Notes under the pieces: generated by a model
What the model was told of the DNA's origin: nothing
The model's database searches: none
The model's input: only the letters and a program-made list of their open reading frames with translations
Assembly (NCBI GenBank): GCA_027004315.1
Contig: JALTHV010000134.1
Coordinates: 1-30,044 of the forward strand
DNA: 30,044 nucleotides
Source of the DNA: Deltaproteobacteria bacterium
Lineage (GTDB): Bacteria; Desulfobacterota; Dissulfuribacteria; Dissulfuribacterales; UBA3076
Direction of reading: 5' to 3'
Translations under genes and position numbers: made by a program
In this document: one piece after another, positions 6,828 to 13,299 of the stretch
Layout of the letters: the number at the start of each line of letters is the position of its first letter
How positions within the stretch are numbered: the first letter of the stretch is position 1

Positions 6828-7862
6828 ATGATATCCTTGTTTGAGAAGAGTCTTCTTCATGCCCTGATGATTACCGGCTTCGTCTTCATGATGATGCTGG
6901 TGATTGAGTATGTAAACGTCCTTACCAGGGGGCTGTGGCAGCGAGAGCTGCATGCCAGTCGTATAAAGCAGTATCTGCTGGCCAGTTTTTTGGGGGCAAC
7001 TCCTGGCTGCCTTGGGGCCTTTGCGGCAGTGGCCCTCTATTCCCACAGGGTATTTACTATGGGGGCCTTGGTGGCTGCCATGATCTCCACCAGTGGCGAT
7101 GAATCCTTTGTCATGCTGTCCATGTTTCCCCAAAAGGCCCTGCTACTCTTCTTTATCCTCTTTGTTATAGGTATAATAGCAGGTTTTCTGACAGATCTAT
7201 TGCTTGGGGGAAAAGCGATCAACCAATCCGGATGCCGACAAAAATTTGAATTCCATGAAGAAGAGGCATGCCACTGCCTCCTCAGTTGGGAATCCATCAA
7301 GAGGCAATGGGAGCATTGCTCTATGGCCCGAGGGGTACTGACCGTTACACTGGCACTGTTTATTTTCGGGATACTTAGCGGCAACCTGGGACCGCCAGTA
7401 TGGAACTGGATCAGGGGTACTCTCCTCCTGGTCTCATTGATAGCACTCTTTATTGTGGCTACAGTACCAGAGCACTTTCTGGAAGAGCACCTATGGGAAC
7501 ATATAGCAAAGGTCCATGTCCCGCGGGTATTTTTATGGACCTTAGGGGCATTATTCCTAATGCACATTCTGGTGGATCAGCTCCATCTTAAAGCCTGGAT
7601 GCAGGCTAACCAGTTGATCCTTATGGTATCTGCCTGCCTGATAGGGATTATACCGGAGTCCGGTCCACATTTGATATTTACTACCCTGTTTGCCGAACAT
7701 GCCATACCTTTCAGTATCCTATTGGCAAGCTCTGTGGTGCAGGACGGTCATGGCATGCTACCTCTGCTTGCAGAGTCTCGCCTGGACTTTATCAAGATCA
7801 AGGGGATCAATTTTTTTGTAGGACTCTTTGTAGGGCTGGTAGGTTATTGGGGAGGCTGGTAG
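6828..7862 (+). CDS. Putative multi-TM heavy-metal/manganese transporter (ArsP_2-like family)
   Basis: 344 aa, about 9-10 hydrophobic segments; GATPGCLGAF, TSGDESF, PESGPH, QDGHG motifs; His/Cys loop FHEEEACHC. Confidence 0.7.
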   Translation: MISLFEKSLLHALMITGFVFMMMLVIEYVNVLTRGLWQRELHASRIKQYLLASFLGATPGCLGAFAAVALYSHRVFTMGALVAAMISTSGDESFVMLSMFPQKALLLFFILFVIGIIAGFLTDLLLGGKAINQSGCRQKFEFHEEEACHCLLSWESIKRQWEHCSMARGVLTVTLALFIFGILSGNLGPPVWNWIRGTLLLVSLIALFIVATVPEHFLEEHLWEHIAKVHVPRVFLWTLGALFLMHILVDQLHLKAWMQANQLILMVSACLIGIIPESGPHLIFTTLFAEHAIPFSILLASSVVQDGHGMLPLLAESRLDFIKIKGINFFVGLFVGLVGYWGGW

Positions 7863-9606: not shown

Positions 9607-10773
9607 TCAGTCCCGACGAGGCATGGCACTCCCTGAGATCGGGGTCGGGTAGCGTAGGACGACCCAGTAAGTCGAGACGATAAACGTCACCATCGTGGTG
9701 ATCTGAATCACCATGGCTCCTTCGGCTGACAGGAGGCCAACTGACAGGGCCGCGAACACTACCAAGAGAGAAAACTCGCTAGACTGTGCCAAGCGCACCG
9801 CCAGCTCTCGGGACAGCTCTGATGATTCTCCGCTCTTCCGGAATGCAAAACGAAATACATAGGCCTTCAAGGGTACAAGAAGCGCACCGAAGATGACTGC
9901 CGAGAGAAGGAGTCGTAGATCGAGTCGTAGGTCCAGTTTCGCCCCTACAGCAAAGAAGAAGAGAATAAGGAAAAACTCGCGCAGTGGTTTCAGATGTTCG
10001 GCAATGGCGACTGCAACCCGGCAGGATGCGATCGAGAGTCCGGCAATGAATGCTCCCATCTCGTAAGAAAGACCAAGAATGTGAGCGACTTCGGCCCACA
10101 ATAGGCACCATCCCAATGTTGCAACGAAACTATACTCCTGAACCATATCAAACTTCCTAAGGAGTGGCATCACTGTGTAGCGCACGCCCACGAAAGATAG
10201 CAGGCAGACGAGCACGAATTTCCCTGCGAGCATCGCGAAGGTCACCAGCACGTGATTGCTTTTTTCTACGGTGATGAAAAGGATGACAAGAATGGCCAAT
10301 ACGTCCTGAAGAAGAAGGACACTGGTCATTATCTCACCCGTCCGTTTATGGTGGAGTGTGGTGGTAGAGATCAGCTTCAGGCCGACCACTGTGCTTGAGA
10401 ACATCATGGCCGCACCGAAAAGGACGGAGCTGTGTATGTCAAAGCCGAGCAGTAAGGCAAAGAGAAGAGACACACACCCGAATAGCATTGATGTAGTAAA
10501 TGTGAGAAGTGAGGTCTTGCGAAAGAGCTTGGCCAGTTTTGCTGGTTGTAAGTTAAGACCAACGAGAAAAAGCAGAAGTATGACACCGAGGTGGGATATC
10601 TGCTCAATGTGGTAGGTCCTGCGAAGCAGGGCAAACCCATTTGGCCCAATGGCAAAGCCTATTGCGATATAGGCGATGATGATCGGCTGCCTGGCATAGA
10701 GAAACAGCGTTCCCAGCACGGCCGCGCCGACAATGATCACACTCAACTCAAATACAATGCCATCAAGAGTCAT
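9607..10773 (-). CDS. Cation:proton antiporter (CPA2 / KefB-like membrane domain only)
   Basis: 388 aa, highly hydrophobic; LLFLVGLNL, FSSTVVGLKL, LLLQD, MGAFIAG, LAQSSEFS motifs; no KTN/TrkA-N domain; visibly richer in CG dinucleotides than its neighbours. Confidence 0.88.
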   Translation of the reverse strand: MTLDGIVFELSVIIVGAAVLGTLFLYARQPIIIAYIAIGFAIGPNGFALLRRTYHIEQISHLGVILLLFLVGLNLQPAKLAKLFRKTSLLTFTTSMLFGCVSLLFALLLGFDIHSSVLFGAAMMFSSTVVGLKLISTTTLHHKRTGEIMTSVLLLQDVLAILVILFITVEKSNHVLVTFAMLAGKFVLVCLLSFVGVRYTVMPLLRKFDMVQEYSFVATLGWCLLWAEVAHILGLSYEMGAFIAGLSIASCRVAVAIAEHLKPLREFFLILFFFAVGAKLDLRLDLRLLLSAVIFGALLVPLKAYVFRFAFRKSGESSELSRELAVRLAQSSEFSLLVVFAALSVGLLSAEGAMVIQITTMVTFIVSTYWVVLRYPTPISGSAMPRRD

Positions 10774-10805
10774 GTGTCTTGGTTACATATTGTTCCATGT
10801 CTGAG

Positions 10806-10857
10806 AGCCAACACCGAGCTCACCACGCGTTTTTACGCCGGCTGCATTTTGCCTTGT
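10806..10857 (-). other. Degenerate attC-like integron recombination site, cut at its R'' end by an intron
   Basis: Minus strand ACAAGGCAAAATGCAGCCGGCGT-AAAA-ACGCGTGGTGAGCTCGGTGTTGGCT resembles the AACAAGGC..TGCAGCCG / TGAGCTCGG(C/T)GTT attC halves; core GTT lies about 37 bp before the antiporter ATG; arm pairing is imperfect. Confidence 0.5.
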
Positions 10858-11265
10858 GTATGCCCTATATGGGCATAGACTTATGAGGTTAAAGTCCTCT
10901 ATACGTAAACCGTCTACGTCCCCGGCTAGTGGTGGCATTTCCCAGGGTTTCAGGAGCATCGCTTGATGCACAAAATCGAGACGCTTCAAAAAGCTACCGC
11001 TGGCCAGGGAAGGAATGTGAATAGTTACAATTTCACTGCCTGATTCCGATGATAGCGAAAATATTAGCCGAAGGCAAGGGCATTGCCGCTAGGTGAGGTC
11101 TGGATGAAGTCGGATTGCAAAGCTGTGAGCCGGCGAATAGAAATGGCATATAAGGCCAAGTCCCTGGATAAGGCAGCACAAGATGAGCGAAGTCCTGAAT
11201 CTAGAAGATATGGTAAGGTAAATGCCGCGGCAGATTATCCAGTGAGATTACCGGCAGGGGTTTGC
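10858..11265 (+). ncRNA. Truncated group IIC (attC-type) intron, domain I only, interrupted by a MITE at 10905-11028
   Basis: 5' end GTATGCCC-TATAT-GGGCATAG...GAGG-TTAAAGT-CCTC, then after the MITE the ordered motifs TTAGCCGAAGGCAAGGG (11064), TCTGGATGAAGTCGGATTGCAAA (11099), CATATAAGGC (11147), GC-ACAA (11176-11181), AAGTCCT (11190), GTAAATG (11218), TTACCGGCAGGGGTTTG (11248). These are colinear with the O. iheyensis IIC intron as I recall it; no D5/D6 or RT ORF. Confidence 0.75.
10905..11028. mobile_element. Family A MITE-like element, internally deleted, core inverted
   Basis: AACCGTCTACGTCCCCGG arm as at 26110, core GAGCATCGCTTGATGCACAAAATC, right arm and end GTGAATAGTTAC (11017-11028); no target duplication found. 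Confidence 0.85.

Positions 11266-13299
<2,034 letters not shown>

Follow-up and report, generated by a model that had tools for sequence, protein, structure and literature searches.

A probable fossil of the IIC-attC group II intron lineage, split by a MITE, between a Na+/H+ exchanger gene and ligA in an uncultured Desulfobacterota bacterium

The interval 10774-11265 of the window (the whole 30,044-nucleotide stretch of DNA analysed here) lies between two minus-strand genes, for a Na+/H+ exchanger and for LigA, and raises the question of what element left its remains there and whether it still sits at an integron attC site, as a first-pass annotation had proposed. The host genome is a MAG (89% complete, 410 contigs, 2.0 Mb) of an uncultured member of the Desulfobacterota, the LigA of which is 77% identical to the LigA of a MAG labelled SeepSRB2. 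An RNase R gene is found behind ligA, and the gap between the exchanger gene and the convergent manC is 32 nt. The locus comprises the following features:

9607-10773, minus strand: Na+/H+ exchanger gene (Pfam PF00999), divergent to the intron stub, the 5' end of which is 84 nt away
10806-10857, plus strand: 5' exon, or former target, with IBS1 TTGT (10854-57) and GCCAAC (10808-13), a motif like an RYYYAAC core
10858-10904, plus strand: intron nt 1-47 (GUAUG..., first domain I hairpin), placed by alignment to relatives
10905-11028 (124 nt), no strand assigned: copy of an IS66-type MITE with an internal deletion of ~27 nt and GTAAC/GTTAC ends, from a family with 297 matches
11029-11268, plus strand: intron nt ~51 to ~300, the rest of domain I (Rfam D1D4-3 match 11082-11255; EBS1 loop 11176-11183)
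11266-13287, minus strand: ligA, NAD-dependent DNA ligase (Pfam), with a stop codon that abuts or overlaps the last intron-like bases

The intron stub is oriented antisense to both neighbours. A search of 10600-11500 against Rfam at E ≤ 10 matched RF02001 (group-II-D1D4-3) at 11082-11255 on the plus strand, over the full model (1-170) and with 83.3 bits, where the gathering score is 32, providing the group II match that the first-pass annotation had expected; further group II models and attC-like families had no match in this region. As no Rfam model covers intron nt 1-100, alignment of the MITE-excised window sequence to relatives was used in place of Infernal on the joined sequence. From nt 1 onward the excised sequence can be aligned with eight introns, intact or ORF-less, at 74-82% identity (227-305 nt aligned), and it is 74-77% identical over 238-269 nt to the introns of E. 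coli and Aeromonas integrons. Position 10858 onward (GTATGCCC...) corresponds to nt 1 of intact introns, and within 10858-10904 the window is identical to the relative L026 at 43 of 47 nt and to the E. coli and Aeromonas introns (L081 and L082) at 37 of 47. The IIC-like 5' end that had been suggested directly after TTGT (10857) is in this way an exact 5' junction, and the suggested resumption of domain I beyond the MITE agrees with intron homology from 11029. The A at the third position had been called non-consensus, a view that does not hold: the first bases are GUACG in every relative and in the classical integron introns, so GUA is the norm of the lineage. The C-to-U change at intron position 4 is private to the window copy.

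Matches to the intron family were present in 21 of the 41 related genomes searched, several of these loci having matches to D1, D1D4-1 and D5/D6 and containing copies that are complete or ORF-less. The IIC-attC lineage is formally defined by an IEP that falls in the monophyletic IIC-attC clade (PMC3001079), and membership of the window element would follow from its RNA sequence and target. A full-length IEP of the exact intron family was sought in 40 relatives, where only broken or contig-cut copies were found; the best matches of the broken IEP in L080, a related copy, are ltrA genes carried by integrons (~50% identity). The RNA comparison supports the window element as a fossil of the IIC-attC intron lineage, one that reveals no new mechanism.

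The guide pairing points the same way. In the Rfam alignment, ACAA (11178-81) is part of the 8 nt (GCACAAGA, 11176-83) that form the terminal loop of a hairpin. The same EBS1 hairpin is independently predicted by RNAalifold from ten copies, with compensatory changes in its stem and, over the whole consensus, at 18 of 43 pairs. ACAA is complementary to the exon end TTGT (10854-57). The match between EBS1 and IBS1 is intact, as had been claimed, and ACAA does fall in a domain I loop, at the tip of a hairpin with covariation support. Class C introns pair EBS1 with IBS1 over a short 3-4 bp and present EBS1 in a domain I terminal loop, traits that the stub displays, and for IIC-attC introns the IBS1/IBS3 consensus is TTGT/T, with a pairing of only 3-4 bp (PMC7923331). 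Six copies combine a loop ACAA with an exon end TTGT, while loop and exon end co-vary in three others, as CACA/TGTG (L032), CACAA/TTGTG (L027) and CAA/TTG (L038), and mismatch in two decayed copies. L032 (G017:C130; junctions 747/748 and 1469/1470) is an ORF-less intron inserted one base into the 5' end of an older copy, such that the exon end is TTGT plus G, the 3' 'exon' begins TACGCCCGGCATTGGC and EBS1 is changed to CACA, matching TGTG; here an intron has homed into a site that already carried one, and its guide has co-varied.

Taken together, these data make it very probable that a group II intron of the IIC-attC lineage retrohomed at this site and is now a truncated, MITE-split stub. A class C, attC-targeting intron would have entered the plus strand directly after TTGT, with this IBS1 paired to the intron EBS1 ACAA. 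Intron nt 1 to ~300, most of ribozyme domain I, is what is left of it. An IS66-type MITE of ~124 nt has inserted between intron nt 47 and 51, and D2-D6 with any RT/maturase ORF have been lost, through a putative deletion or rearrangement with its far end at the ligA stop codon. The upstream DNA hairpin that such introns need would have decayed to the point of no longer being foldable.

The MITE interrupts domain I at 10905-11028, between intron nt 47 and 51, where the first-pass annotation had placed it; intact intron copies read ...CTCTATAC-GTG-AATCCCGC... at this point. The family's 297 matches are spread over 188 of the 410 contigs; its consensus measures ~150 nt and has GTAACCGTTCAC-type inverted ends, and perfect 8-bp target duplications are seen at other copies. 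Inverted ends, ~300 copies and the 8-bp duplications at other copies are the traits of an IS66-type MITE. The same ends, non-coding nature and high repetition are known from IS66-family-derived MITEs (GTAA... ends, 8-bp duplication), from which the window copy differs in its internal deletion and in the absence of a target duplication. Since the window copy has no recognisable target duplication and its right junction lacks 3 intron nt (GTG), the insertion was presumably not clean, or a small deletion may have occurred afterwards. Across the genome, MITE copies are often nested next to each other's ends, and the ~300 copies probably explain the fragmentation of the assembly.

At the opposite end, homology to intact introns is solid to ~11251 and plausible to ~11270, fading between the two; the end stretch reads TGCTCAAC in the window and TGCTTAAC in the E. 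coli intron. The ligA stop codon (11266-68) lies within the stretch that still aligns, to intron nt ~295-302. RF00029 (D5/D6) had no match in the window and TIGR04416 (group II RT) none in the assembled genome. With no RF00029 match and homology ending at ~11268, the window element is a fragment rather than an intron, and with no D5/D6 in the window and no RT gene in the assembly, the copy is dead. The account of an RNA that ends at the ligA stop codon, lacks D5/D6 and an RT ORF and is dead therefore agrees with these searches, homology being lost at ~11270. The fragment can no longer splice or move. The window LigA ends ~9 residues before its same-genus ortholog, and the truncating event may on this account have clipped or replaced the ligA tail, although the C-terminal end of LigA is variable among relatives.

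The full-length copy with an RT/maturase that had been thought worth seeking in the genome was not found: the assembly holds no RT and, besides the stub, only two remnants of the intron family. An intact master copy with RT could be unassembled, as the MAG is 89% complete and in 410 contigs. The two remnants are:

C151:7477-7615 (region 7298-7615; L005:1322-1639): sister intron fragment, nt ~48-190, 84-91% identical to window positions 11036-11174
C144:3142-3211, minus strand: D5/D6 remnant of the same intron family, 42.8 bits

In C151, too, a MITE abuts the fragment: intron sequence begins where the right end of the MITE stops, at the intron position also interrupted in the window and likewise without target duplication, and the fragment ends near the stop of a convergent gene. 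Its MITE is a different right-end variant and much more decayed than that of the window. The shared insertion point could reflect either a single insertion that was later duplicated or a target preference for the intron's TIR-like ACGTGAA. The left part of the C151 region was considered as a decayed intron 5' end and rejected, a decayed MITE being the better fit. The second remnant lies in C144:3142-3415 (L003:1501-1774, minus strand), where a complete attC (E=1e-6, ~135-nt family) is followed after ~70 nt by the IEP end; the element is 5'-truncated and consists of the last ~45 nt of the IEP ORF and D5/D6.

That this D5/D6 remnant belongs to the same family as the stub is what would allow the stub to be one half of a split, trans-acting ribozyme, with the C144 D5-D6 as the other half. 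We give this reading almost no chance: D2 and D3 are present in neither piece, domain I is broken by the MITE, the genome is without a maturase and there would be nothing to splice, as the exons are non-coding intergenic DNA.

Whether the 5' exon is an attC was investigated by comparison with the integron components of the host genome, which contains two integron integrase genes above the curated cut-off (TIGR02249, 441 and 432 bits) and, on the search for other attC sites that had been suggested, at least 12 of these, belonging to a ~135-nt family:

C276:1286-2233 and C378:206-1147: integron integrases (TIGR02249)
Contigs C363, C27, C221, C243, C194, C329, C189, C282 and C353: attC sites

The integrase genes and attC sites are all on short contigs and therefore represent one or more chromosomal integrons fragmented in assembly. 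Related intron copies occupy attC hairpins that belong to the host attC family, at GT/T in the R'' end. Comparison of the L031 site with the uninterrupted attC of C144 places the insertion exactly at GT/T, and fold z-scores are -2.3 to -3.7 at the sites of L026b, L033, L038 and L027.

Of the properties of the host attC sites (a hairpin with R''/R' cores, bulges and family similarity), the 5' exon retains only the core-like motif GCCAAC. Positions 10806-10857 fold no better than shuffled sequences (z = -0.35, -0.08 and -0.75). An HMM of the genome's own attC sites gave no nhmmer match to the 5' exon at E ≤ 1000 with filters off and none anywhere on the window contig (C134), and Smith-Waterman similarity to the same sites is at shuffle level, with 315 of 500 shuffles reaching the score. 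The attC-like hairpin that had been described at 10806-10857 thus lacks a significant fold, and the claim that the intron is still at an attC is supported neither by the HMM nor by the similarity to host attC sites, which equals chance.

The 5' exon is nevertheless significantly similar to the 5' exons of L032 and L026a (0 of 1000 shuffles reach the score). Its right arm matches the L032 site, where the hairpin has 17 bp, two T bulging from its 3' arm, a fold z of -6.5 and an architecture like that of the aadA1 attC; the left arm of the exon, including GCCAAC, matches L026a, which stands in a cassette-array-like context. A regular expression for the right-arm motif matched only the window and two true attC sites and was discounted as evidence, since it had been designed from the window and shuffles gave 0-2 matches. 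The window IBS1 is TTGT, as in the IIC-attC target, and IBS3 and the rest of R'' are gone with the 3' exon. Hairpins other than attC are also used by IIC-attC introns (PMC7923331). At best, the 5' exon would be a decayed short attC-like or hairpin target and not a cassette boundary.

These similarities bear on the alternative that 10806-10857 is a genuine attC bottom strand and the exchanger gene a (stranded) gene cassette. GCCAAC at 10808-13, which is GTTGGC on the cassette strand, is 50 nt from the TTGT junction and would fit an attC of ~55-60 nt; the two arms resemble the L026a and L032 sites, and the genome is equipped with integrases and attC sites. The exchanger gene itself was found in 2 of the 21 genomes searched, both of the host genus, and its neighbours are wholly different in the other of these (G001), where the protein is 94% identical. 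The exchanger gene looks like an accessory, recently relocated gene because its neighbours differ in that genome. Against a cassette stand the fold, HMM and shuffle results above and the absence of an attC behind the exchanger gene, in the 32 nt to manC, or elsewhere on the contig; no cassette features were seen at the gene, and the 3' exon, which would have supplied the rest of the R box and with it the key pairing, has been lost. We therefore regard a genuine attC with a cassette-borne exchanger as unlikely, and retain the decayed target as the preferred reading. Of the four-layer history that had been read from the locus, intron, MITE and truncation stand and the cassette is unsupported, and the order of MITE and truncation is not readable from the sequence.

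The G001 genome was also searched for an empty orthologous site, and there was none to compare, since both the exchanger gene and ligA (89% amino acid identity to that of the window) stand in different neighbourhoods there. The adjacency of ligA and the exchanger gene is absent from this same-genus genome, and a rearrangement was therefore involved in joining them.

The stub could also owe its survival to a function in this new arrangement. A scan for sigma-70-like sites gave one candidate:

11049-11077, minus strand: promoter-like site TTGCCT-17-TATCAT, intron nt 68-96

It is the sole match in 10600-11450 (chance expectation 0.9 +/- 0.9) and faces the exchanger gene, with the position and -35 of P1out, a promoter at positions 66-109 in domain I of IIC-attC introns that is experimentally active (PMC3001079, Table 3). 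The stub might then have been kept because the predicted P1out equivalent drives the exchanger gene, ~275 nt downstream. Consistent with such exaptation, the site is the single promoter-like match within 680 nt upstream of the exchanger gene, its position and -35 are shared with active P1out promoters, and both fragments in the genome have TATCAT where intact relatives have TATCCT, TACCAT or TAACCT. However, one match equals the chance expectation, the -35 belongs to a part of the ribozyme that is conserved in structure and would be there anyway, and the shared TATCAT is equally explained by the two fragments being sister copies. Moreover, in the C151 fragment the promoter faces a convergent gene, and in the window no terminator was predicted, making read-through from ligA possible, which could serve the exchanger gene. 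Retention through promoter activity consequently appears improbable. Equally doubtful or slightly more so is the fuller version, in which the P1out equivalent, conserved and here sharpened to TATCAT, was co-opted to transcribe the exchanger gene, seemingly a recent acquisition, through the MITE and intron bases supply the ligA stop codon; if true, a dead retroelement would shape the expression of both neighbours, the exchanger gene and ligA. The stub is, in our assessment, a well-preserved but ordinary genomic fossil.

The closest known systems are the IIC-attC introns of integrons (S.ma.I2, E.c.I7 and Kl.pn.I1 type), with which the stub shares the 5' sequence GUAYGCCC...GGGCAU...AUGAGGU.AAAGUCCUCU, the EBS1 loop GCACAAGA, insertion after TTGT, an antisense orientation to the neighbouring gene and a P1out-like site. 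In class 1 integrons, the ltrA introns of E. coli p4M9F and Aeromonas pASP-135 are flanked by aadA and qac/cmlA cassettes, to which they are antisense. These classical introns begin ...AATTGT/GTACGCCCAGCATGGGCAT and have a loop GCACAAGA identical to that of the window; the RNA starts ...GAATTGT/GTACGCCCAGCATGGGCATGAAC... directly after the aadA attC. Unlike them, the window element keeps ~300 nt of domain I, split by a MITE, with no D2-D6 and no IEP, and has a target with no demonstrable attC, outside a cassette array and in a Seep-SRB2-like host. Truncated IIC-attC fragments in arrays and CALINs (UHB.F1, Tanatar-5 soda lake; PMC7923331) are of the same lineage and likewise dead and antisense. 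UHB.F1 is 5'-truncated with IEP remnants and lies in an array, whereas the window copy is 3'-truncated, disrupted by a MITE and located between housekeeping-type genes. Class C introns that insert after intrinsic terminators (Robart et al. 2007, as cited in PMC4424553) likewise have an EBS1-IBS1 pairing of 3-4 bp and need an upstream stem-loop; in contrast to these, the RNA sequence of the window is closer to the attC sub-lineage, and no terminator-like stem with a T-run is present at the target on either strand.

Attachment-site-type class C introns of this kind, many of them ORF-less or truncated, populate integron-bearing, Seep-SRB2-like sulfate reducers and are missed by ORF-based annotation. 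With its exact 5' junction, intact guide pairing and nested MITE all readable, the locus is a clean teaching example. Its practical use lies in the annotation of intergenic debris and in marking the rearrangement by which ligA came to adjoin an accessory antiporter gene.

ORF-less bacterial group II introns are described as rare in reviews (PMC4424553), whereas ORF-less derivatives are frequent in this clade. Locus L026 (G029:C1:12864-16008) contains two such derivatives, at 204-839 (636 nt) and 1444-2241 (798 nt), which retain IEP remnants and are 1.24 kb apart, each located in an attC-like site and antisense to the small ORF between them.
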